NCBI GenBank assembly: GCA_030704615.1
Contig: CM060731.1
Location: 88,660,001-88,724,000 of the forward strand
Length of the DNA stretch: 64,000 nt
DNA from: Takakia lepidozioides
Lineage: Eukaryota; Plantae; Bryophyta
Reading direction: 5' to 3'
The notes beneath the pieces were generated by a model that saw nothing but the letters and a program-made list of their open reading frames with translations, was not told the origin of the DNA and ran no database searches. The translations under genes and the position numbers were made by a program. This document shows positions 14,301 through 63,705 of the stretch, one piece after another (position 1 is the first letter of the stretch; each line of letters begins with the position of its first letter).

Positions 14301-14909
14301 GCAGCTCGAATAGGATATCCCCATCAAAAGTCTCCGGTAGAAACTTCACTGGCACCTGCCTGAAAGATTCCCAATCAATTCCCCGCAACTCACTTTTGAA
14401 ACCGGCCATTCTTCCCATTGCCCGTAGTTTTGGAATGACACTATAAATCTCTTCTTCATCCGTTTCCACAACTAGCGTAGTAAGCACTGGAGTTGGAATT
14501 TCACTTATGTCTTCATCGGACGAATCCGAAAGCTCAACGATTGGAGTGGAGGACGTTTGTTCTTTTTCACCACCACCTCCTTTTTGTCTTCAACGACCGA
14601 AGCAGCAGTCCCCGGCGTCACATATGATCCAAGGGACTTTCGCCGAGGCTCTCCAAGTACTCTGTATCTCCCAGGGCGCACTCTCCACTGGCTGACATGA
14701 GCTGTCTTATCACGATTTTGGAACGAGTATTTCAACAATTTCCCATCCAAATCGTATACCTCTTTCTCCAAGAAGATGGAGCCATTTTGAAGCTCAAACC
14801 GGGTAGCCAAGACATGTTCCAGAACAATTGCGAATCCATTGTCAAGGGCTTCTTTGGAGAAAGACACTGGTTTGTCGTCAGAAAAGAACTCTGCTTCGGA
14901 GAAAGCCAT
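11399..14909 (-). pseudogene. Mutator/MULE-type DDE transposase with N-terminal GCM-like Zn domain and C-terminal SWIM finger (frameshifted); the element spans roughly 9950-15720
   Basis: DGHPW...C.GHLRC.N..C (13951-14487); MFDH and FMTD aspartates (13185-13859); CLFHW CxxH (12942-13181); NLAETVHN glutamate (about 12730); SWIM-like CTWPDF...CKY (11399-11911). Termini not resolved. Confidence 0.75.
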
Positions 14910-37070: not shown

Positions 37071-37079
37071 CACCTAGCG

Positions 37080-39432: not shown

Positions 39433-39580
39433 AATACATAGATATGAATAAATAAAGTAATATTTAGAGCACTGTATTAGAGCAGATTTGACAAAAAAGA
39501 TTTATGGTTTTGTTTTTGTTTCTCCTGGGTAGTTCGGGCAGCTTTAGTAAGGATGGACGTTGCCCATTATTGACGAAATT

Positions 39581-41250: not shown

Positions 41251-43912
41251 CACTACAACAGATCGTGGTATATATGACTGTATATATGACTATCCCGTAG
41301 TCATAAACGGTACATATGACTGCAATGACTTTAAGTCGTGCAAACCAAGTGAATACAATGAGTACAGTATGGTCAGTCATGGATGACTGCAGTCAGATGA
41401 ACCAAGTGATACATCTCACTGTCGTGTGGCAGTAATATGTACTTCTACTTAGTATGCTGCTACAAAGCAGGGATAGAGTGTGGGTTCAGATTCATCGAAG
41501 AGGGCCAGACTTCAAGCTCGACATTACCTACAATTCCATGTGGATCATCAATAGCTACTAGCAACCTGCATGGGTAGATGGTCAACTGGAAGCTGCAGCA
41601 GCAGCGACGGAATTGATAAAATCAGGCACTGCTAATGAAGGCACCTTCTTCAACACATTTTCACCTTGTTTTTCTTTCTTATCAGAATCGACCCTAAGAT
41701 TCCATGTTGAATTCTGCAAGTTAGCTGGTTGAGTGAACCTTTGATAGTTGGAGTGACTTTGACATGATACTGTCAATGTGACAATATGAAAGTATCCTGA
41801 AACAGGTAACAGAGATGGGGTGAAGCTGTGGAATGCATACTTTTCTTACCCATTCAATGGTGGGACAATCGAGGCAAGAAGGTGAATGTCTGTTTGATTA
41901 TAGAGAGTAGCAGATTCAATTGAGCATAGGAACAAGTGTGATAAGTTGAGTTGGGTGTTTCCTAGAACAAATCTAGGCTGTCATCGTCAGCTGCTAGCAG
42001 CAAAGCAAGGATGTATGCATGATTTGTGCATAGCCATGGATAGCTGAAGGAGCAGAGATAGAGTGTGGGTCCAGATTCATCCAAGAGGGCCAGAAAGAGG
42101 TCCATGGTGACATCGTCAAAGCTGGAATTGTACCGGATGTCATTATGAACACTACCCTGGTGGACATGTATGCCAAATGTAGGTGCATTAAGGATGCGAA
42201 GGGAGTTTCCAACACTATGGCTGAACGAGATGTGGTGTCGTGGAACGCGATGCTTGCAGTATGCACAGCAAGGACGTGGTATGGAGGCTTTGGAGACCTA
42301 TGATCAAATGATGGGGGAAGGGGTGAAGCCTGACCACATCACGTTTTTGTGCATTTGCAATGCATGTGCAAGCCTGGCAGCTCTGGAAAAAGGCACAAAA
42401 GTCCATGGCAACATTGTCAGAGCTGGAATTGTACCAAATGTCATTCTGAACAATATCCTCGTGGACATGTACATGCAAAATGTGGTTGCACCCTATCCTG
42501 CTGATTTGTTGTTGTGCTGGAACAGTAGCAAACGTAGAAAGACATACGCATTTTACATCTGTTGTTATCTTCAGTGCATATGTAGTGTCATTTGCACTTT
42601 GTCAGACTATTGTTTGAGGAGTCAGATTTTGGGACTCCAGTGCTATATCGTAAATTTGACTGGCAGCAGTTTAAGAGAAGCTCTTACATCTACTGCTGTC
42701 TTTAAGTGCCTATGTTTTGTCCTTTGCACTTGCCGACTTTGTTCTTTCCTGTGATTCTTGCCTGGGTATAAAGCATTCATTTGCAGAGTCATTTTTTGTC
42801 TCTTTGTTCTTCCATTTGTTCTTCTCTTTGTTTAGTATTGAATAATACTAACCCTAATATCTACTAACCCTAACGAGATAAGCATAGTCGTGGTTTTGTC
42901 TGTCCAATACATTTGAAAGTTCAAAACAACCCCTCATATGACACGCAGATCCTCCTCATGGATATGCCACGTGGCAGTTTCGGGAGACACCATATGGCGC
43001 ACATCCACAAAACCTCAAAGACACAGCTATCCATGCCTCTGCCCATCATGCATTCACCCTTGCCTTGCTGTTAACAGCTGACAATGAAAGGCTCGAATTG
43101 TTCTAGGAAACACCCAACTCAACTTATCACACTAGTTCATATGCTCAATGGCCATTAGGAAGAAATTTACGGTAGTTGGGATACACCATCTTGTGAAGAT
43201 GGCGGGAGCTATGTGCAAAGATCATCGCCACAATGCAAGCATGCATGTTACCCTTTGGTGCTTAGCCCCGAGCAAACAGTTAGTCCTGTACTACACATCC
43301 CGCCACATTAGCAAAAACAAAAAGTTGTCATGTGCATGATCCATAATGCCATCTACCCCACTACGGTGCACAAGACTGTCGCCGCTACTTCAATCAATCC
43401 CAATCCTCATCGATATTATCCGGCATTGACAAGTGAATGTGCGCGGGTTGTTCATGGGGAACATAATATACCTGGATAATCATGCATTGTCCAAAGCAAT
43501 ATGCCTCTCATATGAAAAGATTGTCCGGCCATAGGGTCAAGTGAAGCATCCAATGCCGGGACCCCCCTCCATAGCTCCTTAAGTTCATCAACAAGAGGTC
43601 GCAAATACGTGTCCATGTTTGCCACTTGTTTTTTCCCTATGAGACATTCACATCATTGTTTCAATGCTCCACCAATATGCAAATTATACTACAAAATGAA
43701 TTACACGTCTTACTCCATGATTATGTCACTAATCAATCTTGCATCCGAATTGCGTCAGAGATCAGAAGTTTAATGTAAAGTCTAAGGCAATAATAAACAT
43801 GAAATGAGTACACTCACCTGGCACAATGGCAGCCAACATGATATGGCATTTTTTAATTGAAAGATACGGAGGGATGTTGTAATTCACCATGGTCACCGGC
43901 CAAGTGGAATGA
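41251..43912. mobile_element. CACTA element, one end, with PDF/PPR gene fragments and an intron-containing Tnp2 transposase fragment (minus, 43150-43912)
   Basis: CACTACAACAGA at 41251 with ATGACT subterminal repeats. Tnp2 reads HSTWPVTMVNYNIPP, MDTYLRPLVDELKELW, LLWTMHDYPG and YRKFLPNGH. Confidence 0.85.
41460..42490 (+). pseudogene. Scrambled OSB-type PDF-motif and PLS-class PPR gene fragments
   Basis: GPDFK...W; QWWDNRGKK; LVDMYAKC; VVSWNAM; GVKPDHITFLCICNACASLAALEKG. Paralogous to 48830-50300. Confidence 0.85.
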
Positions 43913-46125
43913 CTACATGACTGGACAGAGTGAACCTACTGCAGCTGCATCCAACAATACAGCTGGTCCAATCCATGATCGGATCTGATGTACACTGGCC
44001 ATAATCCTGGCCCAAGAATCCCCCATGAGATGAACATTCTCCACGATGTAAGCTGGAGACTGCACTTGCCTCACCTGCAAGTCACGCAACACTTGCAACA
44101 TCAAAATAGATGCGATCGTGCATCATGCAAACCATTACCATGACTTGCGGGAGAATGTCCTTGGCAAGGCCACCCTCATATCACCAAGTCAATGGGACCA
44201 TGCCGATCCAAATCATCCGCCCCCAGCATGGTAATGTCTGCTGGCAAAGCCTTTTGGTACCCTTGAATTGCTGAGAGAGGCAACAACTCAGGATACTGAT
44301 ATGTGAGTAAGGCAACATGGCGCATGGAAACACGCCGAGCAATCTCATCCTTCTCAAGGAGAGGTCACTTCCAAATATTACCATTTGACGTGCAAAAAAA
44401 TATAGGGTGCCAAAAATTCTGAGAAAATAAAATTTAGAATATATTTAGAAATACTATAGGATACTAATATATTGGCGCCACCACATTTAAATTAAAATAG
44501 GGTCCAAAATAAAGACGGATTCTTCAAAAAAATAAAACTAATATAGGGTGGAGATAAATTAAAGGGACACGTGTCGATCAGTGACACGCAGCGGAGAGGG
44601 CGTAGGCGCATGTGCACAACAACCCTAGGCTTCCCTCTCTCCTGTCGGCTGCAATTCGTGGTGACATTGTGCTAGACAGACAGAGAGAAAGGGTTGTGCA
44701 CTCAGTGGTGCAAGCATTGTGGCCCACAGGTTTTGAAGCTTGCAGGGCGTGACAATGGAAAAGCGTAGATTGAGGGGGAAGGATGGCAACACAAGCATGG
44801 CGGCCCATAGGTTTTGAGGGACATGGTGGATAGACAGAATACAAAAAATGAGAAGAAAGGTAGGGAACAGGTGGGAGGTCTCTCGACAACTAGTTGATCT
44901 CTTTAACAAGCCAGCCACAACAATCATGGTGCTTTTCAACTACTTCTCAAATCTAGAGGGCATCTGAAATTCAAATATGATGTAACTGACAGCAAGTGGA
45001 TAGACATAAATTCGATTATTAGTTCAGTTACTATGAGATTTGATTTTGCTCAGAACCTTTATACTTTAAATGATGCTGATGCATCTACTTTGGATAAATC
45101 TGTTTCCAGCAAATAAAAAATTATTACCCCTTAATTTTTTTTAAATTTTCAGGTTAATATAGGGTGTCCAATATTTGTTACCTGCTATAAAATATAAATA
45201 ATATAGCCTACAAGAAAATATGTCATATTACAAAATTATGTAATAAAGAGTGGCAAAAAATTCAGAAAATAAAATTAATACCCCCATAGAAAATGCCTAT
45301 AATTTGCATCACATGTCTAAGAAACTAGATAGGGAGTGACCTCCCCGAGATCCTTCTCCACATATAAGTACTTGCGTACTTTGATTCCTGCTTACAACAC
45401 TCCTGCAAACCCAGTGCTCATGCCTCCAAACAGGTCTAGTAAACAAATCCCTGAGTCAGGTGGTTGCCAGGTAATGGGCACTGTGTCCTAACTCAGGAGG
45501 TCCATGTGATGTCACTGAACTCCCCTCGCTCACCAATGGAAAGGCCTCCTACCACACGCTCGCCTGCTACTCGATTCAAATTCCCAACTGTACCCCATAG
45601 TGGAATATGCATAGGCACATGAGGAAGCAACTCAGCCTTGTATGTCAATTGTTTGTCCTCATCAGATGGTGGCATATCATCTGCATGGCTATTGCCCTCC
45701 AAGAGCTCACCACCCCAAGCCACCACACCTGAGAATGTAGCCAATGTTGGCATCATGTTCCTATGATCCACCGCTACATTCCCAATAAACCGCACTGGGA
45801 GCAGTGCACGTCGGCCATCCCCTGACTGCCATTCCGGCCTATAGGACGTCGTTTCCTCCCAAAAGTCCAGAGTAAATCCCATTGGGTATAACACGGCCCC
45901 ACCAACAAGCACATCATAGGACATTGTGTCCGTAACAATGGTTTTGGCTCTCATGACTGAGCCATCCGTAGGATAATCTGGCTGTAGTCAAATGAAGAGC
46001 TCATGGCGTATGATCCCTCGCGTCTTCTCTGAACCACCTAAAGACGTTTGAATCTGGAAAGGGCAAGGCTCCAAATCCGCCTCTGTAAGGCCCAAGCCTG
46101 CAACTGCTGCTCTCCCCAACATATT
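43913..46125 (-). pseudogene. Retroviral-like aspartic protease (C-terminal half) fused to a cytosine-5 DNA methyltransferase, motifs I to start of VIII
   Basis: DVLVGGAVL (protease); motif I LLDLFGGMSTG (about 45410-45445); motif II YLYVEKD; motif IV IDLVI*GWPCQGHS...GLHDARS (44105-44195); motif VI YIVENV (about 44035); DAAAVGS before motif VIII. Stops and frameshifts are present. Confidence 0.88.
44356..45349. mobile_element. Non-autonomous TIR element inserted in the methyltransferase domain
   Basis: Direct repeat ATCCTTCTC at 44347-44355 and 45350-45358; imperfect TIRs GAGGTCACTTCC / GGGAGTGACCTC. Removing the insert restores VEKDEIARR. Confidence 0.8.
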
Positions 46126-48779
46126 GATGGCATTGTCATGTAGGAGTATGATAATTTATCACTATTCTATGTCTGAAAAAAATAGTGTTGTGACAGCAAA
46201 AAATGGACACTGTAGGCTGCAATCACCCTGGCATAAACCGCACACCTCGTCTTGTGTACCACTAGTATTGCTGGCACTGCTCGTATCGGCACTCCCCTCA
46301 GCAACTGGTGGCACCTCCGTGATGAAAACTCACAACCACACCTGTTGTAAACCTGTCTCTAATCCCCCTTTCCATAAGGTAATCGGATAGAGAACCTGTT
46401 GCCGCTTATGGCTTAGACTACTAGGTTCTTAATATAAACCTGTACCTGCACCTGCATCCACCGCAAACACTCCTATGGTTGGATGGTCGTCACCCGAACC
46501 TCACCACAGGAGAAACAATGATGGTCTGACTGGTCATCACCCCAGCCTCACCACCGACAGCATGCTCTAGGATTGGCCGGTGATCAAATCCGGACCAACC
46601 TCCTATGAAAACAAGCGCCCACACAAAGCTAACATGGCGCACAGTCAAGCATGCAAGTGTGGAGGGGATCCAAACGGAAGAAAATCAAACAGTAACTCCC
46701 CCACACCACAAACATTCCACAGTGTCGCTCCTGCAAGACACCCCCAGCCCAAACCCGGACTGATTCTTGCCTCCACCTACGGAAATGTTTTGGCCTACAG
46801 AGAGGGTGAAAGACTACATGGAAGAGAGACTAAAACAACTCCTAATCCAGCATGCTCTCATCCCACTAGCCTATCTCCACACTCTCTTGGTGGAGCAATA
46901 GACAATACTACCTTTCAAGGGTCTCTCAAATAACTCTCCAAGAGCCCTCAAGATGTCTATCAAACAATCTCACTAAGGCTCCCAATCCTTACACAATGGG
47001 ACTCCAAAACAGTACACCAAGGCCCAAGAGCCTGCCAAATCTCGGCCCTCAAGGACCCGAAATAGCCCTCCAAAGGCTCTTCAACGTGTCCTCCAAAGAC
47101 CCCCCAAGGATCCTCCAAAGGAAATACTCCTCCAGATACACCATATATGTCATACACTTTTAATGAAAACGTATGGCAGGAAAAGTCTCTCCACTTGTAT
47201 CCATACACTGTTCAAAAAAGTGTATGTTGGGCAGTATGAGCCATACTCTTATCACAAAACTGTATGGTGGGCAGAATGAGCCATACCCTGTTTTTGAAGT
47301 GGATGGAGAGTAGGGTTTGTAGAGTATAGTAAGAAACACCATACACATTATTGCTCCTGATCCATGCTTCTACCCCAAGTCTTAAGGAGTTTATGCGATG
47401 GTGAGAAACACCTTCTTCATGGTATCTTCCCCCCTAACATGCATGCAAGATTGCATTGTCTTATCTTGCAATGAATTCATCACAAATTGACAAGTTCCTC
47501 ATGATCTCCTTGGAACTCATAGCAAGCTAATGTGCCCAATGACAGGCGCCAAGCCTTGCTTCAATTTGACTTTTGTATGCCATCTTCTATGTGTTTTCCC
47601 TTGCATGGGCTAGTCACACACACTTCCACCTCTTGACCTAGGTGTTGTCTTCATTCACAATAATGTGTATCCACACCTCTATTCAAGAGCTCATCTTCTC
47701 AAACTTGAAGTCATAAGCCCTAAAGAGCATGTTCCACATAAGCATCACTTGCTTGATCAACCATCCACCACAAAACTTAAGCAAGAAGAGAATGAATACA
47801 TGAGCTTCACCTTCCCCTTCCTTGCACTACAACAGAACGCGGTATATCTGACTGCCAGGCCGCGGTAGTCATGGTTTTCCTGACTTTGACCATGACTTCC
47901 TTGTATTTTTGGACCAAATGGGGCTTCACGTAGTCGTTGAAATGACTTCGTGACTATGTAGTCCTCTGAGCGACTACGTTGGTAGACGTCGTCATGACTG
48001 CATGGCTCCGCAGGAGACAGAAGGGTGGTCAACGATGATTGACCAGCGCCAGCTTGCCACCAACAGTCGCCGGAATGACTTCTAGTGCAAGCTTGGTAGC
48101 CAAAACGTTAAAAAATTCAAAAAGTTGTTTGTAGGGTTGCCCATTAGAGGGCTGGGACTTAGCCTCATTTTGGTTTTTTTGCTTTTGGTCTCCTGTGCGT
48201 TTTCTTAGTAAAGAGCTGAGAGCATGAAACGCGATGATCGCAGGATATGCAGGGGCGTGGGATGGAGGCTTTGCAGAGCTATTCTTGAGCAAATGATGCA
48301 GGAATGGCGAGGATATGCACAACGTGGAGGTGGTATAGAGGCTTCGGAGACGTATGAGCAAATAATGCGGGAAAGGGTGAAGCCGGACTGGGTCACGGTC
48401 GTTTGTGTTTGCAATGCGTGTGCGAGCCTGGCAGCTCTGGAAAAGGTAAAAGGTCCATGGTGACATTGTCAAATTTAGGGTATCCAGAAACAGGTAACAG
48501 AGACAGATGTGGCAGTATTGAGGATACAAAGGGAGTGTTTGAGAATATGGCTGAACGAAATGTCGTGTCCTAGAGTGCAATGATCGCGGGATATGCCCCA
48601 GCACGGATGCGGGATGGAGGCATTGGAGACCTATGAGCAAATGATGAGGGAAGGGGCAAAGGCAGACAGACTTGGTCACGTTCGTTTGTAGATGCAATGC
48701 GTGTGCGAGCTTGATTCTTCTTCGACCTGTTTCAGCCTGTTTTGCCCTCTCATCAGACTCGGCCCTGAATTGCTCGGCG

Positions 48780-50760
48780 GAGGAGAGCTGGCATGAGTTT
48801 TTTACAAATCCTTCACGATGGTGGGACAACCGCGATCACAAGTGCTTTGACATGTTACTGCCAATGTAGCAACTGGAAAGTATCCAAAAACAGAAAACAG
48901 AGATGAGGAGAAGCTATGGAATGAATACTTCTCCGACCCCAGTCAATGGTGGGACAAGCGAGGCAAGAAGGTGAATGTTGTTAGATTACAAAGAGAAGCA
49001 GATGCAATTAGCATAGGAACTAGTGTGATAAGTAGGGTTGGGTTATTTGTTAGAACAAATCATTGTCAATTGCTGGAAGCAAGGCGAGGATCTTTGCATG
49101 ATTTGTGCAGAGGGGCAAATAGCTGAAGGAGCAAGGATAGAGTGTGGGTCCAGATTCATCCAAGAGGGCCGGATTTCAAGCACAAGATTACCTATGATTC
49201 CCTGTGGATCAGTAGCTACACAAAACCTGCATGGGTAGATGGTCAACTGGAAGCAACAGCGGTCACACCGACACAGTTGATAAAGTCAGGCACCTCGATC
49301 CTAACCACAAGCGCTTCTAAAAGAGGACCAAGAGAGGGAGTCCACAATGACTCTTCTGGGACTTCTAGGCATGTGAAGATGCTTTGTGAAGCAGACTGAC
49401 TGACAGTGGCTCTACAGACTTTAAACCAAGGAGGAGGCATTTCAGCAGATTCAGATACGTATGTCTGTCTCTTGCATAAGTGCATCAAGATGAAAGGCCT
49501 GGAAGCTGGAAAACAGGTGCACGCTCACATCATCCAAAGTGGATTCAAGCCAAACGTTTTTTACACAACACCCTTGTCAACATGTATGTTGAGTGCGGGA
49601 GCATCATGGATGCTCACCAACTGTTCAACAGAATGCCTCAACGATCTTTGGTCACGTGGAATATTATAATGTTGGCAGGATTTACCAAGCATGGGTGTGG
49701 TACAAATGCTTTGGAGACCTACAAGCAAATGAGGCTGGAAGGGGTAAGCCCGACCACATCACATTTGTTTGCGTTTGCAATGCGTGCGCGAGCCTGGCAG
49801 CCTTGGAAAAGGGCAAAGAGGTCCATGTTGACATCGTCAAGCTGGAATTGTACCAGATGTCATTCTGAACACTACCCTGGTGGACATGTATGTCAAATTT
49901 GGGTGCATTGAAGATGCAAAGGCAATGTTCGACAAAATGGCTGAACGTGATGTGGTGTCGTGGAGCGCGATGATCGCAGGATATGCACAGCAGGGTCGTG
50001 GGATGGAGGCTTTGGAGACCTATGAGAAAATGATGCTAGAAGGGGTGAAGCCCAACTAGATCACCTTGCTGGCGTTCGCAATGCATGTGCAAGTCTGGCA
50101 GCCTTGGAAAATGTCTTGGTCCATGGTGACATTGTCAAAGCTGGAATTGTACCAAATGTCATTCTGAACACTGCCTTGCTGGATATGTATGCCAAATGTG
50201 GGAGTGTTGAAGATGCAAAGGGGATGTTTGACATTATGGCTGAATGTGATGTGGTGTTGTGGAACGCGATGATCGTAGGACATGCACAGCAGGGTTGCGG
50301 GATGGTTGTCATTCTGAACAATACCAAGGTGGACTTGTATGCAAAATGTGAGTGCATCGAGCCCTGGACAAGGGCAAAGAGCTGCATGGGGATATCATCA
50401 AAGCTGAAATGGTACCAAATGTCATTCTGAACATTGCCCTGGCAGCTCTTGAAAAGGGGAAAGAGGTCCATGGCGACATCTTCAGAGCTGGAATTGTACC
50501 AAATGTCATTCGGAACAATACCCTGGTGGACATGTATGCAAAATGTGGGTGCATCGAGCCCTGGACAAGGGCAAAGAGGTGCATGGGGATATCATCAAAG
50601 CTGGAATTGTACCAAATGTCATTATAAACACTGCCCTGGCAGCTCTGGAAAGGGGCAAAGAGGTCCATGGCGACATCTTCAGAGCTGGAATAAATGTCAT
50701 TCTGAACAATACCCTGGTGGACATGTATGCAAAATGTGGGTGCATCGAGGAGTCCCCCGT
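48780..50760 (+). pseudogene. OSB/PTAC9-type PDF motif(s) fused to a PLS-class PPR array
   Basis: WHEFFTNPSRWWDNRDHK, then EEKLWNEYFSDPSQWWDKRGKK, intron 48971-49153, then IHPRGPDFKHKITYDSLW...PAWVDGQL. The same frame continues into TYVCLLHKC...GKQVHAHII and P-L-S repeats, with stops and frameshifts. Confidence 0.85.
50308..50750 (+). repeat. Tandem ~190-197-bp duplications of PPR L/S-motif coding sequence
   Basis: Unit starts at 50308, 50505 and 50696. Confidence 0.85.
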
Positions 50761-53700
50761 GGGTCATGACACAAGGTCGAGGACAATGTGGTGAGGGCAC
50801 CTTCTTCTTCAACCTATTTCAGCCTGTTTTGCCCTCTCATCAGACTCGTCCCTGGATTTGCATGTTGAATTCTGTAATTTAGCTCGTTGGGTGGATCTGC
50901 ATGGGATAGCTGAAGGAGCAGGGATAGAGTGTGGGTCCAGATTCATTCAAGAGGGCCAGATTTCAAGCTCCAGATTATGTATGACTCCCTATGGATCAAT
51001 AGCTACAAGAAACCTGCATGGGTAGGTCGTGTTGTGATATCTCCCATGGATGCTGAAGACGAGTTGTGCTAAAAAAACAGAGTGTGCCCTGGTACGATCG
51101 ACCACCTTAGCAACAAGTCCTGACAAAGATGGTATTTCTGAAGGGTTGTATGGTGAAGAGAAGCGTGAATTGAAGAAAGAGGATGTTGCAGAGGAAGGCG
51201 ATAAACAAGGAGGTCCTCCAAAGAATAAAATGCATTTGGCATTCCTTGACATTGCTGAGGTTGTAATAGATGGAGCACTCAGTCAGAGCAAGGGAGTGGA
51301 AGGTGTAGGGATATGTCAAGAGACCAGCGCGCATTTGGACACTAGGAGATGCAGAAGTGAGGTTGATGAGGTCAGGGAGATGGACATGATGAGGTTGGGC
51401 GCTCCCTATCCTATGATACACGGGCAGCAAGTCAAAATTGTTTTTACTTTGATGCAATGACAAGTGAGGAGGATGAAGGGGAAGGACAAGCTAATTCTTC
51501 AGGCGATGACAACGATGATCTGAATCTGAACTGGGGTAAGAGTAGTCCGATTGGTATTCCAGGGGCACACTCAAGTTCAGACATCCTGTTCATAGTGGTC
51601 AGGATCTTCTACTCTCTGTAATCCAACAGGCATTCACCTTTTTGCCTTGATTGTCCCACCATTGACTGGGGTCAGAAAAGTTCTTTGTGGGTGGGGATAT
51701 ATGTAGGACCTGAAGATTCACCATCTTCTAGATCCCATGCATATTGAGAAGAATGTCTGCTCGTCCCTTTTTCGGGTTCTTCATGGCACGCCGGCAAAAA
51801 AGGGAGTGGCTGCAAAAGGAGATTCTCTCGGTGTTAGAAAGGAGCTTGAGGAATAGGGTCGCATGCGCCATCTATGGGCCGAACAAAATGGTGTGGACCC
51901 AAAGGGTGTTGTACGGTGGAAGTATAGGCGCGCACCTTGGCAATGGACAAAGGAGGAATACAAAAAAGTGATAGCCACCATAAATGTTGTCCGAACACCA
52001 ACTGGTTATGGGTCATCCCTCCGTACGAAGTTCAGCAAGGAAGACGGGGTCCATGGTTTGAAGTCTCATGACTACCACAATCTATTGCAAGACATCTTGC
52101 TCATTGCAGTACGTGGGACATTGACTCCCACTTAGTGGAAGAGGCTTCGATTGCCGGCCCCGTTCATTCTCGGTGGATGTACTTCCTTGAGCGTTATATG
52201 AAGACTTTGAAAGGATTTGTAAGACAAATGGCGCACCCAGAGGGTAGCATGGCGGAGGGGTATACGTTGCAAGAAGCTATGTTCTATTGCACGGAGTACA
52301 TGGCAAGGGTGGATTAGGAAGCCCCTCGGATGTCAAAGGAAGAGGAGGATGCACGAACCAAAGACATCATTTTGCCCAAAAAATCAAAGAGGGTAAAATT
52401 GCCGACCTTGGTGATTGAGCAAGCGCATGACTTCATACTGAAGAACACCCCATCCATACATGAGTGGGAGGCAAGATACAATAATCTTGTTCAGCAACAA
52501 GAGGAGGAGACGCTTGCATAGAGGCGGAACCATCCAAGGCCGGTTACTAAACGTCCACGACGAGGAGCGGGCCGCCGGAATGTTCCTTCACAAAATTTGA
52601 TCATGGAATTGCAGCCTCTAAGTTCATTCCAACAATGGCTTTGGACTTCAGTTTATGACGCCGTTGTTCAAGGAGAGGTGGTTTCAGATTTGGTGCAAGA
52701 CATTGCAAGGGGCCCCTCTCAATTCGCGACCTCATACACGGCGGTTTGGGTTCACGGTCGTCATTTCCGCATTCGTGCTCTTGACATGAAGCACAAAACA
52801 ACCTTTGATTCAGGCTTGTGTACCACATATTGACAAGACTCCGTGTGGGGCAAGGGAGATACATAACCTCCTATGAGCAAACTTGAGTACATTGGAGAGC
52901 TTGAGAGCATACTCCAACTTCAGTATACGGTACCGGCCTCTTCTCTTCAAGGGAAGGTGGTTCCAGCCACATCTTGTGGGGCCCACCGCAACACTAGTGC
53001 AAGATGATTGTGGTTTCATGCGTGTCAATGCAGATAGGCTCAACCCTACTAATCGTCCCTCCGATGAGTCTTTTTCACGGCCTTCAGACATGGAGCAAGT
53101 TTTCTTCTCCGATGACAAAACAAGAGGGGGGAATTGGAAGGTGGTTGTGCATGCTCAGCCAAGAGGAAGACGTATCTATCATGGTCTCGGATCTCCATGG
53201 GGTGAGGCAATTGCGGTGGACGGAGAGACTGGACATAATGATGCTGATGATGGAGGTTGGGTAGAGGGGGTGGAAGAGGATGATGACGCCCCGGACAATG
53301 CATCCTGAACCCTATATGATGAAGCTCTAGAAGATACGGATGTTGGAGAAGGAGACGAAGACACGGCCATTGACAACGAGGTGGAGGATGATTCGGAGGT
53401 GCCTTTTGAGGGCCAGGCCATTTATGACGATGACTCCAATGACCAAGAAGACTTGCAGCTTGATGAGGATGAAGAAGCTCCGGATGATGATGTTCAAGTT
53501 GATTAGACACAAAATCAAAACTACATAACAATTCTCGCACCAAACTGGACCCATCCCTTCGATTGATTGTACATGTACATGCATATTGTACTTTATTTCT
53601 ATGATTGATCAAATATGGCTGTGGCTGGTAGTCTTTTAAGAAAGAAGGCAGAGGCAATGAATATGTTGGAGTAACACATACTTAGATGGGCGGCGTGGGC

Positions 53701-53769
53701 GTAGTACTTGCAGCTTGGTTTATTGGAGTTGTGAAATCGATGTGTATTGCTACCTGGAATATGTGTAGG

Positions 53770-55625
53770 TTTTAAGGTTACAGCTCGGGAAAAGAATAGT
53801 GGGTGAAACAACTTGTCAAGCGAGCGAAGACTGTTGTGTCGTTCATCCACTCACACCACATCCCTTTGACAATATATAGGAGGCACGAACCCAAATACAG
53901 CCTCCGCAATCCAGGCAAAACTCGTTTTGTCACTAACTTCTTGATGGTGGATCGGTTGGTACCGGTGTTAATCGTCTTGCGGGAGTTTGATGGAAAACAA
54001 CCAGTAATGGGCAAGGCATGGTTACTAATGCAAAATCTTAAGAAGCACGTCCAATCTTTGAGGCATCCTCCCTTCTCCTTGGAACCTGAACTTGCGGCAG
54101 TGCTGAGGATGCATTTTACGACCGTCGTTCGATGGTTCGAACAGACTTGCATTATGCGGGGGCTTTGCTCAATCCATTCTTGCTCGACAATACCATGCTC
54201 CGAGACGACGCTGATGCCAAGGCCAACCTCGTGCGAGGACTCATGCGACTGGCTCCGCCAAACCATGTAGAGAGAGCTATATCCGAGTACTAATGATTCT
54301 CAGATCGCCGCGACCTTTTTGAGGACATGCCGGATCCAAAAAAGCTCAATATGTTGCCACATGAATGGTGGGATCTGATTGGAGCTGGAGCAAGAACATT
54401 GGCTCCCATTGCGAAGCGTATTCTTGCTCAAGTGTGCTCAGCCTCATCTTGTGAACGCAATTGGAGCAGTTACTCATTTGTTCACAACAAGATTCGCAAC
54501 AGGTTGAATCCCGCGAGGGCTGACAAATTGGTGTATGTGTATACCAATTGCCGACTGCTACGTGATAGGGCAGCGGATGATGCTGTAGCATGATATGAGA
54601 GAAATTTGCATTCCGAAGACTCTGCTTCTGAGGCTGATTCGATGAGTGACGATACTGAGTCTTAGAGAGAATCATCTCAGAGGGAATCATCTTAGAGGGA
54701 ATCATCTGCCTTCGATAGTAAAGATGGATCTGATGATGCTCCCGAAAATGCGTATGACCCGTTTACATTCACAGATGATGATGCTTATATCCAGCCGACC
54801 TTTGATGACCTTCTTGAAGAAGTGCGTATCGCAGATCAAAGTGAAGCTGCAATTGAATCATCCCCAGAACATGGTCCTCAAAATGAAGTTGGGGTCGACC
54901 CTCGCCCCCCACTACATGTTGAAGCCACCGGTGGTGCCCCAATGGAGCTTAGGGGTGATGTACTGCCAGGACCGATCGACGTACGCAACCATGTTCATAC
55001 AAACGATGGTGTCGAACCCATTGTACAGTTGACGGGACGATCATGCCTCACCGATACGACCAGCTCCACCACAATGTCAAAACCGATCAGTTCCCCATCA
55101 ACACAGCGGGCATTAAAGAGCAACAGGGTTGATCTATTTTCCACACGCACGCATCATTCTGCTGCATTGGACCGAGTGGAAGTTGAAGCCTCGGATGATG
55201 ACAATCTGCCACTACAATTCCACCTTAATCGACGTGTTGCGCAGCAGACCCGTGGTTCCTCACATGCCGGACCATCTAATGTCGGTCCATCTCGGGCAGA
55301 CCCCCCTCCGGTACCTCCTTCGAGACTACCTTCGATTGCGTCCCAAGTCCATAAACGACAGAGAACAGTCCAACCTTTTGTAGGCGATCGGCCCACAAAC
55401 AGGCCAGATACCGTGGATGGTATTCAAGACCGGAGTGGGAGTCGACCTCAGAGAGAACTAAATGTGGTTCGAGGTCGCTTGCAGATTCAAAAGCCTGGAC
55501 ATATGAGGTCGGATAGGGAGGACGATTCCAGCACTGATCATGGCAACGGTGGTGAAATCGAGGGTGACCCGGATTTTCAACCCATCGGAGCATTAGGCTT
55601 CTTCGTCCCGCCGTCGAAGCAGTAG
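53770..55625 (+). pseudogene. hAT transposase C-terminal fragment
   Basis: PGKTRFVTNF; WWDLIG...AKRILAQVCSASSCERNWS...RNRL...KLVYVYTN (dimerisation domain); acidic, low-complexity tail. Confidence 0.88.
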
Positions 55626-55902
55626 AAGGAATTGAATCAAAACAGCGGTAGGCATGCATCAGCACATTTTAGTGGACATGATTATATTTCTATAGTGAAG
55701 TAATACCAATGTGATCATTGTCACTATGAGTATTTGTATTGTTGTTGTGTATGTGTTGGAAAATAAAAGATGTTGTCCATGTGTATATCAGCCAAAATGT
55801 CGGCCAAATGCACCGTCACTTGCTCATGTTTGTGTTTGGTGATTTGCTTGTGGAATGGAGAACAATTGTGCCATACTTCCAACTGTGCATTCATTTTTAT
55901 TT

Positions 55903-56800
55903 AAATGGAGCGACCGCCAAGCTGGCGGTCGCTTCTACGAGGTCTGTTTTTATAAATGCAGCGACCGCCATTACTGGCGGTCGTTTTATTTTTATTTTTT
56001 GGCGAAATGGAGCGACCGCCATTTGTGGCGGTCGTTTTTACTTGTTTTTAAATGGAGCGATCGCCAAGGTGGCGGTCGCTTCTACGAGGTCCGCCCTGCG
56101 CGTGGAGCGAGGAATGAGGGGGTGGGGGGGCATATAAGACCCCAGTCATTCTCCCCTCACTTCCATTACTTGCAGTTTTTGTTTTTACAAAATGCAGCGA
56201 CCGCCATTTCTGACGATCGCTGTAATGGTTATTTTTAAAAATGCAGCGACCGCCAGTTTATTTTTTTATTTTTAGAAATGGGGCGATTGCCATTACTGGC
56301 GGTCGCTTCTATTTAAATGTTTTTGAAAATGAAGCGACCGCCATTACAGGCGGTCGCTTCTCTATATTTTGGAGGAAAATCGAGCGACCGCCATTACGGG
56401 CGGTCGCCACAATTGTTTTGTTTTTTGTAAATCCAGCGACCGCCACTACTGGCGGTCGCTTTTATTAAAATTTTGTTGGAAATGGAACGACCGCCATGAC
56501 TGGCGGTCGCTTTTATTTGAAGCGACCGCCTATGTTGGCGGTCGATTAGTTATTTTATTTTCGGAAAATGGAGTGTGGCGGTCGCAGTTTTTTTTTAATC
56601 CGGAAAATGGAGCGGCCGCCTGTTCTGGTGGTCGTTTTTATTTTTATTTTTATTTTTAATATTTCCGGAAAATGGAGCGACTGCCATTTATGGCGGTCGC
56701 AGTTTTATTTATTTATTCGGAAAATGGAGCGACCGCCATTTCTGGCGGTCGCTTATTTTTTATTTTCCGGAAAATGGAGCGACCGCCAAGTTGGCGGTCC
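55903..56800. repeat. Array of short hairpin units GCGACCGCCA-N(2-4)-TGGCGGTCGC separated by A/T tracts
   Basis: Directly visible. A larger unit is also duplicated at about 56080-56165 and 56803-56890. Confidence 0.92.
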
Positions 56801-57404
56801 CCTTCTAGAAGATTCGCTCTACACGTGGCTCGAGGAATGGGGGGGGGGATATAAGCCAAGGGAGGCTCATTCTCCCATCATTTCCTCTCCACACAACTTC
56901 TGTGTGTATGACATTTCATTATTCCACGACACGTAGTCATGTGGAGAAGGAGGCCATTGGTTGGGTGAGGGGTATTTTTTGCCGCGATTTTTGTGAGGTC
57001 GTTGCAGATTGCTCCCATAGGTCCTCCTCTGACTTCCAGGATCATTTTATTCTACAAAATTAGCTTTTAGAAACTATTTTGACACCTACTCAAACCTACT
57101 TAATGGGGGAAGAGTTTAGAGTTACGTCTTATTAGAAAACCTCGTTTAGTGTTGCTCCGATTGTTGCAGAATGGCAGAGGGCCAGGACGATGACCGTCAT
57201 GGAAGAGATGACCCCAATGAACATGGACCGCCCTCTAAGAAAATCAAATGGTCAAGGCAAGACTTAAATTGGGAAGTATATGGTGACCCTAGCATACTAG
57301 CAGAAGAGGGCTGGGAGGATGTTTCGGAAGAGTTCCGATGGCCGATGGCGAGATGCAAAAAATTCGTGAAATGGTACCACATCAATCGATTGTGGCCTTT
57401 GGAT

Positions 57405-59844
57405 AGGCATGTTTTTCGAGACAATGGTCCAGGGTTGATTTGGGACAATGTGCTACATCAATTGGTGGAGCCTAGTGCGGATGAGCGAGAGCGGGCAATG
57501 AGGTTTGCCACGGGCACTATAGCTGTGCCAGTTCTGTCAGAGGCATCACGACGCCAGGTGTTGGGTCAGACAATGGATCTCAATTGCTTGACATGGGTCA
57601 TTGGCTTGTGCATGGCTGAGCAACGGAGATTGCAAGCAGTGGTGGCTACTTCGGCACTCTCATTGGATAGTGCATCCTCCCTGCCAATCGAGATGGTTGA
57701 GGCAGTGAGTGGGGACGAACACAGGATCGTGGGGGTGCAAACACCCATGGCAGATGTGGGATGAGTTGCGAAGAGAAAGAGAGAGTCATTGGATCTCTCA
57801 AGGATCAATACGAGGAGTGAGGAGAGCCATACATGGAGGATCAGTTGGAGGCCAAGGTGACCAATGTTTTTGAAGAGGTTGAGAATCAAAGGATGTTCTC
57901 AAGGTGGCTACGGCGGAGCAAGTGGAGGTTACGCCACAGTCAGGATGGGCGGACAAGGCCCAAGAGGTTGCTATCTAGCAACCAAAAGATGCGTCTCCTA
58001 CCTCCAAGCCTGGTGTACACCCAAGGTTGCAGTCACTAAGGACAATTGGGAACCAGATGTTGGAGCTACAGTCACCGGAGGAGAGAGACAAAGGATCCAA
58101 CGATTTCTAAGGGCTTATAGAAATTGCTTTGCCTTCGGTTTGAAGGATTTGGGGAGCTTGAAGGGCCAGGAGATTCGTATTGATTTAGCAAGTGACACGC
58201 CAATTCTTCGAAAGCCCTACATGTATAGTGACATGGAGAGGTCTTTGATCCAGTCACGGACTATGGAGTTGTTCGAGGCTGGATTGGTGGAGTTGTCAGG
58301 CGGGGAGTATGCCTCGACAACGGTGATGCCAGCTAAGAATGATATCTATGGCAATTGGACAGAAAGAAGGATGTGTGGGGACTATCATCCTGTGAACCGT
58401 CAGACTAAGTCCGATAGATATGTCATGCCAACTCCAGAGGAGATCTTTGATGCCATTGGGCATGCGAAGTGTTTAGCACATTGGACTTGCGATCCGGTTA
58501 CCACCAGTTGTCAATCAAAGAGGCTGACAAACAAAAGACGACATTCTGGGGGATTGACCAGCATGGGAAGGATTGTTTGTACCAATGACGCTTCCTACCA
58601 TTTGGGTTGAAGAATGCTCCTGCAGAGTTTCAGAGGGTCATGGATAGGATTTTTGCAGGGCTAGACTTCACCCGATGCTACATTGATTACATCATCATCT
58701 TTAGTGCCACGGTTGAGGAGCATGAGAGATACCTTCAGGTGGTGTTTGAGCGCTTGAGGGCGCATGGATTGAAACTGCACCCTGGAAAATGCAAGTTCTC
58801 CACGATCAGATTGAGTATCTGGGCTACATGATATACCCTGGAGGATTGGGTGTTCAACAGACAAAGGTGGAGGCCATTGCACGCATTCTACGCTCCATAG
58901 ATGTAAACAGAGTTCGTGCTTTCATGGGGTTGGCAAACGTTTGTTAAGGGATTTAGCAGCATTGCGAAGGCTCTTACCAAGTTAACCAAGGTGGGTCAGG
59001 AGTGGCAGTGGGAGGAGGAGCAAGAGGAGCAGGAGGAAGCCTTTGAGGAACTCAAGGCTCGATTGACTTTTGCGCCTATTCTGAGGCGGCCTATTCGGGG
59101 GCGGCCTTTCCAGCTACATACGGATTGGAGTATGCTGGGGATTGGAGCAGTGCTCACATAGGTGGATGATGAGGGAAGAGAGTTCGTAGTGGCATATGCT
59201 AGTCGCTCGAACAATGATGCTGAGGTGAAGTATAGTTCATATGAAAGGGAGTGTCTAGCTGCAGTATGGGCAGTGACTCATTTTAGATACTACCTCTATG
59301 ACAACCACTTCACCCTTGTCACGGATCACCAACCATTGAAGTGGTTGATGGAGTCAGACAAGCTTACAGGGAAGCTTGCACGGTGGGCACTTATGCTTCA
59401 AGAGTACGACTTCCAGGTGGTGCATCGAGCCGGTATAGTCAATCGGGATGCAGATGGGTTGAGTCGTAATCCATGCATGTGTATCTGCAGCAGATAGCGC
59501 CTACAACCTTGGATGTCACAGCAGGACGTGTGATTCTAAAGGTCAGGGAGGTGTTGCCTTCATGAGTGTTGATTCTGGAGGGTTGAGATGGCATTGTAAG
59601 GAAGGACCATGTGTGCAATTGTGCGCCATGTCATCTTCCACATGTGGATGGGAGGATAGATCCCAACTTTGCAGTGGTACCTGCAGGTTTGCGTTGCATG
59701 CTATGTGGGCATGCTGGTGGTGCCGCAACCATGTTGGTGTTTGACAAATGCTCAAGGGGGTGGCACATGTGATGCTTGACACCGCCACTTGAAGAGGTTC
59801 CTAGCGGAGAATGGTTGTGTCCACGATGTCTTGGACAGAGATAG
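57405..59844 (+). pseudogene. 3' half of the gypsy pol: methyltransferase motifs IX-X, RT, RNase H, PHD finger (integrase core deleted)
   Basis: EPSADERERAMRF (IX); RRQVLGQTMD (X); RRMCGDY and KNAPAEFQR...YIDY (RT); LHTDWS...AYASRS...TDHQPL...DGLSR (RNase H); CMLC...MLVFDKC...WHM*C...PSGEWLCPRC (PHD, 59695-59829). Confidence 0.9.
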
Positions 59845-60093
59845 TGGACATGACAATGGTGAGGTTGACAAAGGTCTAGCTAGTGGGGGTTCAACGCCAT
59901 AGATCCCCCAGTGAAAGCCATGGATTGTAGGAAGGCGACTAACGATGGGGCTACTTTTGCACCCGGCCTCTTGATCTATCAACTTCGGATACTGGGGACT
60001 TGTGCGATTGAAGACCAAGCAATGATCTTATTAGGGTGGATACTTGTCAGCTACCGGTGTTAGAGGGACCTAATCACCAGCTAGGGGGGTGAT

Positions 60094-60623
60094 TGGCATA
60101 GCTTTCTAGGATTGTGTGCTTAGAATGTATGGTGGACAACGATGTATGTTGTGGCACGATGCCTAGGTGCACGGCAGCTGTCATGGTTTTAGTCATGGTT
60201 AACTAGAATTACCTACTTCTAGTTAATTAGGACATTTTGGATATTTATATTTGTATTTTGTGTGTTGGGACTTCATTTGGTCTCATGCCAAGTGAGGTAT
60301 CAAGCCTCACTTGGGACATGGGGATGGGTTTCCCCTTTGTGAGTGTGGAGGAAAGTTCATCTTCTTGTAGTTGAGCCTCCATGAGCCTCTCTCACCTCTA
60401 TAGCTCTAGGTATTGAGAGGGAGTGTGTTGAGGGCTTTGTAGGGTGCCCTTAGCAAGGGTGCCCTTGGCTTGACTTAGTTTATGTGATTGAGTGGATCAT
60501 GATTGGAGTGTTTCCATTATATTCACTTTCATTATCATTGTGGCATAGCTTTCTAGGATTGTGTGCTTAGAATGTATGGTGGACAACGATGTATGTTGTG
60601 GCACGATGCTTAGGTGCACGACA
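60094..60623 (+). repeat. Rearranged 3' LTR after the polypurine tract
   Basis: PPT AGGGGGG at 60083-60089; an ~85-bp LTR-end unit at 60094-60176 and 60539-60623; LTR start at 60179. Confidence 0.75.
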
Positions 60624-61505
60624 AATTAATTTTTTCGATGTGATACGATTTTCTTTTCTTTGGTTTTTTTCAGGGCAATTTGAGCAGTTTGAGAAAAATG
60701 TTGACGATGACGAGACACTTGAAAGGCCCCTTTCTTGAGGAAGAGGAAAACAATTCAGATGGGGTGGTCTCTCAGGGTGGTACCACAGCCTGAGCCTTTT
60801 TGTTACTTGAATTCAGGGCCTTTGTACCCTTTCAATATAGTTCTAGTGACAACTGAAAAGTGGGAGACTTGTTTTAGTGTAGAGCATGAGTAGGGTAGTT
60901 GCTCCCAGATTTCCCTTTTATAAAAATATAAAGATTACAAAATGTGATTGTGGTTGACTCAAAAATTGCAGGGGTCTCAAGTTTCAAGACAATGAAATTG
61001 ACGGCAAGTTACAAGCTGGAGTGATGATATCATTGTCTACATGACTGCGAATCTTCTTTAATTTTCACAAGACAACTCTAGGTGTATGCATATGAAGACA
61101 AACAAGTGGCCCAACTCCCATCCAAACAAAAAGGAACAGCACAGTAGACAACATTTGTGTACCTGAGATGATCTGCGAATTCACTCAACCAAGCACAATG
61201 CTGGAAATTGGACACTCCAGGGGCAGTTTTTATACCAACGTGTAGCCCATTCTTTTGATCGGGGCTCAACAAATGACAAATTTGACTGAATGACCACCAA
61301 GATCCAGATGGCAATTACAAAACTTACAAGCTGGGTAAAGTACATCACCAAAATCAGGCCCCCCCTTAGCAGACTATATCTGCTGCATTCTTGGAGTAAA
61401 CAATGTTGGTGGAAGTATATAACCAGTAAGGGGTTTATACAGCTATGCTAAAGCCTTCTTTACATCCTCTCCTGTTGAATGACTAACCACCTGGTTACTT
61501 ACATT

Positions 61506-63705
61506 CTAGTGCATCTGAGATAACCGACCATTCTGTTTCCAAAAGCCCACACTTCCATTCCCGTCCCCATTCCTGAAGGAGGGTCGCAGGCCAGCATCAT
61601 CAGGTTGGCCAGGCCAGCAGGGGTCAGGTCCCCGATGCATGTGGTCCATTGTATGCAACCCATCGCTGGAGGCTTGCTGGCCATACCAATTGGCAATGTA
61701 TTTAGCATACCTGCCAAAACACCACACCCCACTCCCTCAACCACAGCCATTCTCCACAGCACCTAAAAGCCTCCTTTGCAAAACTGGCCTACCAACACAC
61801 AACTGAATCAGGCACCAATGTCTGACCACTAACAGGTCATGTGGGAAACAGGGAAACATGGGACGTACTGATCATCAGAGTAGGCCGTGCCAGCCCCACC
61901 CGCCACCCATCCTCCATATAAGGGCCCTGTACTGTTGTAACCCATCTGGCCTCCACCCTGTCCAGTGTGTCAAAATAAAGTCATCACTCCAATGACGATT
62001 ACAATTGCCAGTTCAAGATAGAGCTCAATACAATCGAGGAATAACTAACCTGGTGGTAGCCATTGTACTCCCTCATATGGCCATGGCCATGCCGCTGTAA
62101 ATATTCCTCATAGGTCTGCTTCACAATTGCATCCCCATGAGTGCACACTTGGTTTGAGGCAATGCAAGGAAAGCTGTGGTCTTAAAAGTATGAGAGGAGA
62201 CCACACAAAAAAGTCATTTCTGCTTACCAAGAGAAATTAGCCTGGACTAAGCCTTCCTCATTGACCAAAGTGGGATATGAAGAGCACATGCTACAAACAC
62301 ATTACCATGCATCTTTGGGGTCGCTTCCCTCAAGAAGGCGTTAACCCAAAAACTGATGGAAATACTACCCCACATGTCAAAACATTGCCTGGGGATACAA
62401 CTTCTGGTATAAGACCAAAGTGGAAGCAAGTACGGACCATATTGAGTAGGTCCTCTTCAGGTGCTAAATCTGCACTTCTGCTGCTACTGCTGCTGCGAGT
62501 ACGATCCTTGTGCAACACCCTGTCCATGTCTCTCAGCCGCTCTGTGTCACTTTTCTCAGGAGCGAGAGAATGTGGTGACCTTGACCTTGAGGGAGGTCTA
62601 GGAGCTTCCCCCACATGAAGGCTCTTGCTTGTGAAGCCACTAGACCTCACCATTGGCCTCGAAGATGCAAAGGCTTCGGGAGGGGCCATATGAGGAGGGT
62701 ACATCAAAGGCAGTACAGGGCCTGATGTGGGTGCAGCAGGCAAGCGTGGCCTATATGCAACTTCCCCCACCCCCTCTCCACGTGGTCTCTTTGTCACTTG
62801 GGCAACCACCATGCCAGACCCCAACTTTCTGTTCACAAGCCACATACAATGCTCAATTCTCTTGCAAAATGACATGAGGACAGCCCAACTTGAAGTTCAA
62901 CTGGTAGGAGGAGTGAAAGCAATGTCTGTGAAGAGCTTACCGTTTCGGCCGACCCTCTCTATCAGCACCCTCATCAATGAGGGCACACAACGCATCACCA
63001 ATCTCTTGCGTGAGCTCCTGTGTAACAAACAACTTGTTTGTGAGTGCAGGGTTTGGGGGAAATATGAAACACATCTCAACCACTGGCAGCTGAGCCCATA
63101 CCTGACAATCTCGGCTGATCTTGACAGGCTTGTAGGAATTCAATGGATTCTTCAAATGAACAGTCTTCTGGAAGGGTAGATCATAGAGGCGCAACCATTC
63201 CACCCGAAAAGTTCCACCCCAAGGGTTGGCACCTTCATTCGCTTCACTCCATATGTTGGCCCTACGTCGCCCTATTGGAGTTGTCATTCGTGCATATCCT
63301 TGGAAGTGGCTGCTCATGTTCACACTGAACACTAACAAAACTCTCTCCGAGGTCTACACCACAGCATCCCACAAAGTTGATTGGGAGGTTGTCACATAGC
63401 CCAGCAAAACAGCAAACGACAAAGACATAACCATCTATTTGCATCAAAAGGCTGTGTCCGTAAAATACCCACCTCAAATGCCTCATTGAGGACAGGCTCA
63501 TTCATAGCTTGTGTAGCCCAAATCCCTTTCTCGATTGACTTGGCTATATTGTGGTGATTTAAGCTTTTTATGATGAAATATCTGGTATTGTACATTTTCC
63601 GTTGCTTTAAAGCTCCGCTGCTTGTACCACCATTTGCCAGGTCTCTGCCCTCTGTGACTTTGTCTGCAAGGCGTTGTTGACCTTTCCTTAGGTTAAGCAT
63701 GCCTC
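61506..63705 (-). CDS. YTH-domain m6A reader, YTHDC1/ECT12-type; start not resolved (ATG at 63700 or an upstream exon)
   Basis: Exons 63473-63705, 63102-63353, 62941-63017, 62438-62828, 62050-62115, 61869-61957 and 61506-61710 join in frame. Motifs RYFIIKS...SIEKGIWATQ...FSVNMSSHFQGYARM...NPLN..KPVKISRDCQEL and DLLNMTYEEY. Confidence 0.92.

Follow-up and report, generated by a model that had tools for sequence, protein, structure and literature searches.

The window analysed here comprises 64,000 nucleotides of the genome of Takakia lepidozioides (Bryophyta; GenBank assembly GCA_030704615.1, contig CM060731.1, positions 88,660,001–88,724,000 of the forward strand). Between window positions 39581 and 60623 lies a decayed copy of a Ty3/gypsy retrotransposon, the scattered pieces of which are parts of a single, internally rearranged and dead element. 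We assign this element with near certainty to a family of land-plant Ty3/gypsy retrotransposons encoding a cytosine methyltransferase of DNMT3 type (DNA methyltransferase, DNMT), in which the polymerase region ends in a PHD finger.

Coding pieces of the element

Coding pieces were located by tblastn against the window with Marchantia protein P0002 (Mp4g09160, 1278 aa) as the main query; the relative protein P0282 served as a second reference for the pieces spanning reverse transcriptase (RT), RNase H (RH), integrase (IN) and PHD finger. P0002 matched minus-strand pieces with E values of 9e-54 and 3e-47 and a plus-strand piece with E 7e-31, at 41% identity in the protease (PR) part and 67–73% in the DNMT parts. 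On the minus strand, positions 45538–46122 encode the C-terminal half of an aspartic protease and a linker (P0002 residues 645–862), followed by DNMT motif I (LFGG; 45350–45484; P0002 869–913, 67%; one stop), motifs II–IV (GWPCQG; 44104–44355, tblastn match 44358–44104; P0002 910–994, 69%; one stop) and motif VI (ENV; 43931–44101; P0002 997–1053, 67%). An original prediction, made from the sequence alone, had placed C5-methyltransferase motifs I, II, IV and VI at these positions. Two of its details stood in part: of the predicted protease, the C-terminal half is present while the N-terminal half and the active-site motif are missing, and the predicted start of motif VIII is matched to just before AHRxR, where the DNMT breaks off at 43931, leaving P0002 residues 1054–1129 (76 residues, the motif VIII arginines included) absent. 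A non-coding insert of 994 bp interrupts the domain at 44356–45349, exactly as predicted; it lies inside a 9-bp duplication, the length of which suggests a MULE-like (Mutator-like) origin, and is bypassed by sister contigs.

On the plus strand, DNMT motifs IX–X resume at 57408–57638 (P0002 1130–1206, 73%) and align to motifs IX–X of DNMT3A via protein P0008; an open frame without a Pfam match (57150–57404) is fused to this C-terminal DNMT piece. Comparison with related loci identifies TAG CAA CCA at 57976–57984 as the stop of open reading frame 1 (ORF1) and, given its CARYYA context, a likely readthrough site. RT and RNase H follow at 58029–59479, with stops and frameshifts (P0282 8–492, 65–71%), and then the C-terminal tail of the integrase together with the PHD finger (59479–59844, the finger at 59695–59829; P0282 937–1056, 74%). 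The integrase zinc finger and core (444 aa; P0282 493–936) are deleted at 59479, and the PHD finger has lost two zinc ligands. Pfam assignments agree with the tblastn matches and with the predicted order of motifs IX–X, gypsy RT and RNase H, and a terminal PHD finger: RVT_1 (E 2e-16), RT_RNaseH (E 7e-30), PHD (PF00628, E 7e-10) and DNA_methylase (PF00145, E 2e-4), the last scoring 21.2 bits on one 85-aa piece, just below the cut-off of 22. For the DNA_methylase and PHD scores, one stop was read as X in each piece. No window piece gave a Pfam match to a protease family; relatives do match Asp_protease_2. Gag had no match in the window with five ORF1 proteins as queries (E ≤ 1). Lacking gag, half of the protease, 76 DNMT residues and the integrase core, and carrying many stops, the copy is dead, as had been proposed.

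Ends and extent of the element

We place the element at 39581–60623 because the repeats found by self-comparison of the window match the layout of related loci, in which a 5' repeat A1 is paired with a 3' block of polypurine tract (PPT), B1, A2 and B2. The predicted limits (43913–59844) enclosed the coding pieces correctly, but the element runs on at both sides. At the left, a 4-bp target-site duplication, AATT (39577–39580), precedes the first part of A1, which starts TGTC (39581–39844, plus strand; 95.8% identical to 60179–60440, Kimura two-parameter distance 0.036); the remainder of A1 is inverted locally (39983–40073, minus strand; 95.6% to 60448–60537). At the right, on the plus strand, a PPT common to related loci (60083–60091) is followed by B1 (60094–60176; 97.6% to 60541–60623), A2 (60179–60540) and the 3' terminal repeat B2 (60541–60623), whose last letters, on inspection of the end, are GACA; the matching AATT occupies 60624–60627. 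B1 and A2 meet in a near-palindrome, GGCA-GC-TGTC (60173–60182, plus strand), which reads GACA-GC-TGTC in relatives. Divergence is about 3.5% between A1 and A2 and 2.5% between B1 and B2, placing the insertion roughly 1–4 million years ago at customary plant rates.

Nested fragments of CACTA, hAT and PPR origin occupy the interior of the element, where several pieces are inverted, among them the part encoding the protease and the N-terminal DNMT region. Because the two coding halves lie on opposite strands, 13.5 kb apart, and gag is missing, they might be thought to derive from separate insertions of one high-copy family. That family is indeed abundant in the species: same-species copies were viewed as short contigs (runs X1, X2, X3 (one sample) and X5), in which depth is not copy number, and the 4,282 contigs of run X1 that match 2.6 kb including the DNMT stretch point to a high copy number in T. 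lepidozioides. Against two insertions stand the AATT flanks shared by the A1 and B2 ends (the chance of such agreement between random 4-mers is 0.5–0.8%), the absence of overlap between the halves (the match to P0002 ends at 1053 and resumes at 1130), the mere 3.5% that separates A1 from A2, and the inversion of further pieces of the nest; we consider this explanation highly improbable and retain a single rearranged element.

Relatives of the element in land plants and algae

With the C-terminal DNMT piece as query, 43 longer proteins and 282 representatives (E ≤ 0.001) were recovered, the named relatives coming from Marchantia polymorpha, Sphagnum jensenii, S. fallax, Calypogeia fissa and Riccia sorocarpa; the PHD tail as query matched Marchantia and Calypogeia proteins as well. 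An Atlas search returned DNA_methylase clusters only, and viral contigs contained no relative with A1, the sole match to A2 (L081) being without DNMT. Architecture was scored on 80 metagenome loci, many of them short contigs, chosen from 302 confirmed loci: DNMT lay between PR and RT in 49, and the full order gag-PR-DNMT-RT-RH-IN-PHD was present in 12 (L037 and L043 being one insertion). The claim that a land plant harbours a DNMT-bearing gypsy element with a C-terminal PHD finger is thereby confirmed through its relatives, in which DNMT sits between PR and RT, alongside the DNA_methylase match in the window itself.

The family follows the order PR-RT-RH-IN with gypsy-type RT and RNase H, and L040, P0282 and P0275 have a DDE integrase with an H2C2 finger. 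Pfam analysis of both frames of L040 and of L050 matched rve and gave no match to a tyrosine recombinase. L040 is open throughout but for one TAG between frames of 1369 and 1047 aa, and L050 has the same boundary. Open ORF1 copies in Marchantia number at least five; they are 1278–1281 aa long, 98–99% alike in the DNMT, and have LFGG, GWPCQ, ENV and AHRAR. A Sphagnum-like family comprises 40 loci whose linker resembles that of Sphagnum proteins P0003 and P0013, and a third family from the same metagenomes (17 loci, among L054–L080) shares the split repeats and the junction.

DNMT and RT trees were built from a chosen subset of 56 and 39 rows, respectively, without Klebsormidium and host DNMT3. 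The true outgroups numbered just two, each taken from the window; a third sequence meant for that role was placed inside the family. In both trees the window copy branches basally in a clade that contains the Marchantia and Sphagnum-like copies and, for DNMT, also Calypogeia; support was 99 (quick tree) and 100/98 (careful tree). A second large clade has DNMT between RNase H and integrase, in the order RT-RH-DNMT-IN-PHD; it includes 17 proteins with the full set, among its members P0218, P0224, P0227 and P0140, and one member from the green alga Cymbomonas. Since a single branch sets this clade apart in both trees, DNMT was either moved or captured twice. Some members (P0175, P0233) also have a G-patch domain, and a DNMT-IN-PHD protein labelled as belonging to a Spirochaetia metagenome-assembled genome (P0249) probably stems from eukaryotic DNA that was binned with bacteria.

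A stop codon between DNMT and RT

In related loci, ORF1 ends after DNMT at a stop codon in a recurrent context. At the matching site, 34 of the 40 Sphagnum-like loci have a stop followed by CAR, 24 of them as TAG CAA CCC; in the L040 family the site reads TAG-CARYYA at all four loci. The plant readthrough consensus is UAG-CAR-YYA (PMC2754532, available text). By comparison, CAR follows just 15 of the 647 decay stops that lie within domains. The stop+CAR context is common to three lineages, copies within one family not being independent, and before counting at the fixed site the strict CARYYA pattern had been found in 5 of 61 loci. Thirty-nine proteins consist of gag-PR-DNMT without RT. In the window the stop at 57976 is out of frame with RT as a result of a nearby indel, and sister copies vary by an indel near 58.0 kb.

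From this sequence context we propose, with fair confidence, that RT-RH-IN-PHD would be made by occasional readthrough of TAG-CAR. The second frame could instead be expressed by reinitiation, an internal promoter or splicing: the Sphagnum-like family has a Met three codons past the stop, and the Tca2 junction gave no readthrough (PMC2194720, available text). We judge such routes improbable, since L040 and L077 have no Met from the stop to the start of RT, CAR is retained in three lineages despite unlike flanking protein, and the frames are in phase. Several points nevertheless weigh against a general role for readthrough. The commonest Sphagnum-like context, TAG CAA CCC, is one letter off CARYYA and has that Met three codons on; in the third family of 17 loci, no common stop divides DNMT from RT; and the existence of this family, together with the RH-DNMT-IN clade, means that expression of DNMT at gag level is not required.

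The methyltransferase and the PHD finger

By sequence, the best match of P0008 in the PDB is DNMT3A/B (E 8e-11), followed by DRM (4e-7) and bacterial enzymes; by fold, its predicted model (mean predicted local distance difference test, pLDDT, 56, mostly 70–90 across the DNMT part) again best matches DNMT3A/B (E 3e-15). In relatives, motifs I, IV, VI, VIII and IX–X occur in unpermuted order, and all four motif patterns were found in 54 of 117 DNMT domains under a strict pattern that misses variants. Among the open copies L040, L041 and L050, dN/dS is 0.10–0.13 for DNMT, 0.05 for PHD and 0.02–0.04 for RT, RNase H and integrase, against 0.36–0.59 for the linker. The DNMT value indicates that the domain is retained for a function, most simply catalysis, and we consider the enzyme of this family probably catalytic on the strength of these sequence features. 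Set against this are dS values close to saturation in two of the three pairs and the Klebsormidium enzyme, which gave no methylation in yeast, a result its authors call inconclusive (PMC5890265, available text). The same source reports de novo CG methylation by the Dnmt3 of a Symbiodinium retrotransposon. CpG ratios of 0.34–0.70 in six family stretches, compared with 0.90 in a neighbouring gypsy element, are explained equally well by host methylation, and we do not take them as support.

Turning to the PHD finger, it follows the C4HC3 pattern, and its nearest solved relatives are CHD4, KDM5 PHD1, PHF12, ATXR5, PHF21A, BAZ2 and UHRF1. The fingers of CHD4, KDM5 PHD1, PHF21A, BAZ2 and UHRF1 are readers of unmodified H3 tails, and by analogy the family's finger likely binds such tails as well. 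A point against this is that the finger is without acidic residues ahead of its first Cys, unlike that of the RH-DNMT-IN clade.

The original prediction had paired a DNA-methylation writer with a chromatin reader in one polyprotein. For the window's subfamily this pairing is not supported: a conserved in-frame stop lies between the domains, some 1,000 residues separate the DNMT from the PHD finger at the tail of the integrase, and the conserved TAG-CAR would leave writer and reader mostly on separate proteins. Gypsy polyproteins are, moreover, cleaved by their own protease. Joint reading and writing of host chromatin, for example methylation of the insertion site, has some attraction, as both domains are under selection across the clade, the RT-RH-DNMT-IN-PHD clade (17 proteins) holds them in one shared frame, and animal DNMT3 likewise pairs with a reader of H3 unmethylated at K4. 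Given the stop, the distance, the placement of the PHD finger at the integrase C-terminus and the expected cleavage by the protease, it is unlikely that the finger aims the DNMT, and we regard a joint function as quite doubtful.

Split repeats and integration

Instead of two equal long terminal repeats (LTRs), the family has A1 at the 5' end and PPT-B1-A2-B2 at the 3' end. Its ends are TG...CA, the element beginning with TGTC and finishing with GACA. Of the 22 elements, the window copy included, whose sequence extends 500 nt or more past the PHD finger (two more were too short), 15 have the B1-A2 junction GACA-NN-TGTC (two mismatches or fewer). An exact 4-bp target-site duplication flanks 6 of the 8 elements with both ends, and a 5-bp duplication none of the 8; of individual cases, L037 and L043 represent a single insertion, L025 has one mismatch in its duplication and L067 matches by eye if a tandem end is allowed. 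No tRNA primer site was seen by eye in the 160 nt after A1 at five loci, no tRNA set having been searched.

In split-repeat elements, the internal repeat block has been proposed as a template that restores both ends. On the analogy of the foamy-virus integrase, which cleaves a palindromic circle junction (PMC1180852, available text), the integrase of this family could cleave such a junction in circular cDNA, a proposal to which we give an even chance. Two observations speak against it: the junction was not seen in 7 of the 22 elements, and a circle would carry two equal junctions, yet A...B-A-B insertions alone are observed. These insertions are accounted for if, instead, B1-A2 templates the completion of both ends of a linear cDNA, each of which subsequently loses 2 nt by trimming, without a circle. 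Integrase normally trims a dinucleotide from cDNA ends, and the 2-nt spacer would correspond to it. This linear route has no evident means of halting synthesis exactly at the spacer, and the primer site was not seen in the stretch inspected; we hold it to be a real but less probable possibility than cleavage of the circle junction.

Neighbouring DNA

A CACTA Transposase_21 fragment foreign to the element (43455–43930, minus strand; Pfam E 4e-13 and 2e-9) abuts the broken DNMT: the break at 43931 meets the middle of Transposase_21, and sister CACTA contigs diverge from the window at 43930. We rejected a single inversion that would have linked the broken DNMT with the CACTA gene: with breakpoints at 43931 and about 57405 neither element is cleanly restored, and three or more pieces are inverted. 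Pieces of two or more CACTA transposases lie on both strands (49400–53500, plus; 43455–43930 and 36070–37100, minus), with Transpos_assoc, Transposase_21, DUF4218 and DUF4216. Amid them lie shuffled fragments of pentatricopeptide repeat (PPR) genes in many partial copies (41466–42490 and 48230–51025), whose summed contig depth is very high and which were possibly carried by a transposon. A hAT remnant falls within 53800–56816 (Dimer_Tnp_hAT at 54297–54590), followed by about 12 or more short palindromic repeats with a spacing of about 51 nt (55890–56816).

Elsewhere in the window are two further gypsy remnants without DNMT (1–2923 and 6700–7779, both minus), the first of which shows little CpG loss (0.90), and decayed transposase-like frames at 11402–14589 (minus) with a SWIM/GCM-type Mutator likeness by eye and no Pfam match at E ≤ 0.001. 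Host exons encode an anion-transporter-like protein (22481–23365, minus; by eye), a plant aspartic protease with TAXi_N (26236–26694, plus) and a YTH domain (62940–63353, minus). The PPR, aspartic-protease and YTH exons, like the relatives of the element, mark the host as a land plant.

Discussion

DNMT-bearing retrotransposons are known from dinoflagellates and charophyte algae (PMC5890265, available text), and one paper states that land plants such as tracheophytes lack them (PMC6338049); the available text of PMC12344493 cites just the streptophyte and dinoflagellate cases from 2018. The original prediction did not know the family as a characterised land-plant one, and we likewise found no description of a land-plant DNMT-gypsy family in the literature, a search that did not cover subscription journals or Repbase; the supplements of bioRxiv 2021.11.30.470311 may list PHD-retroelement fusions.

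The closest known element, judged by description and not by sequence, is KnitGypsy-Dnmt3 of Klebsormidium nitens (PMC5890265), which according to the available text shares gypsy domains, an intronless Dnmt3-type DNMT, purifying selection and DIRS-like A1...B-A2-B repeats. In KnitGypsy-Dnmt3 the DNMT lies in the ORF of RT and RNase H, a trait shared by the 17-locus family and P0160, whereas in the window's subfamily it ends the gag-PR frame before the stop; the available text does not mention a PHD finger, and the host is an alga rather than a land plant. On that description the two probably belong to the same wider clade; no named Klebsormidium sequence was among the homologue-search matches. 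SymbioDIRS-Dnmt3 (PMC5890265) is likewise a retrotransposon-borne Dnmt3 with split repeats, and de novo CG methylation was shown for SymbioDIRS, but it follows the DIRS order and inhabits dinoflagellates, whereas the present family has a DDE integrase and 4-bp duplications. Similarly, PAT, Toc, Kangaroo and Ngaro elements have the same A1-B1-A2-B2 split direct repeats, as described in the available text of PMC4157794, but use a tyrosine recombinase; this family has TG...CA ends and an rve integrase bearing the DDE residues. Canonical plant Ty3/gypsy elements (Neumann et al. 2019, PMC6317226) share the order PR-RT-RH-IN, the PPT and the 4-bp duplication but have two equal LTRs, and the available text contains no mention of PHD, methyltransferase, Marchantia or Sphagnum. 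The host gene PpDNMT3b (Yaari et al. 2019, PMC6453930, available text) has the same unpermuted DNMT3 motif order and is found in non-flowering plants, but lies outside retroelements. Finally, the UAG-CAR-YYA context of tobacco mosaic virus (TMV) type (PMC2754532, available text) recurs in the window and the L040 family, placed here after protease and DNMT rather than directly after gag.

Taken as a whole, we think it somewhat probable that the DNMT, which ends the gag-PR frame, methylates the element's own new cDNA inside the particle. Translation of the element RNA would yield gag-PR-DNMT and, by readthrough, the full polyprotein; DNMT would thus be made at gag levels, in excess of RT and integrase, and PHD at pol levels, and the protease would release DNMT and the other parts. 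RT would make cDNA, with B1-A2 serving as a template that restores and joins both ends into a B2-A1 circle junction. The DNMT would methylate the cDNA in the particle before integration, such that new copies arrive pre-marked; cDNA as the target is slightly favoured. The DDE integrase would then cut GACA-NN-TGTC after each CA with a 2-nt stagger, giving recessed CA-3' ends with 2-nt overhangs, a normal substrate, and insertion would yield the 4-bp duplication, the PHD finger of the integrase binding unmodified H3 tails and biasing insertion away from H3K4me3 promoters. Rather than camouflaging cDNA, the DNMT may be a self-silencing brake, or a non-catalytic part that binds nucleic acid or modifies RNA; both ideas are raised in the available text of PMC5890265, in which the Klebsormidium enzyme is inactive in yeast. 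Retention of the catalytic PC, ENV and HRxR motifs in many relatives and a fold of DNMT3 rather than DNMT2 type render these options improbable, and methylation of cDNA remains our preferred account. A more far-reaching reading is distinctly tentative: that this is an ancient green-lineage clade, still young and present in multiple copies in Marchantia, which would package an active DNMT3 at gag levels via a leaky stop, methylate its own cDNA with it, and integrate once its DDE integrase has cut a palindromic circle junction formed from the split direct repeats.

These observations extend DNMT-bearing retrotransposons to liverworts, peat mosses and the T. lepidozioides genome; what is new relative to known elements is the land-plant branch, the candidate leaky stop after DNMT, and split direct repeats combined with a DDE integrase. 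The candidate leaky stop is one oddity of retroelement biology that lends itself to testing, and the pairing of split repeats with a DDE integrase is another. In Marchantia, for which five host methyltransferases are listed (PMC5784723, available text), the open, near-identical ORF1 copies are annotated as hypothetical proteins, and they make the question of why a silencing enzyme is carried on a transposon testable in a transformable plant. If the tentative reading of an ancient clade is true, its replication cycle would be intermediate between those of LTR and DIRS elements, and bryophyte genomes would contain an uncounted source of de novo methylation.

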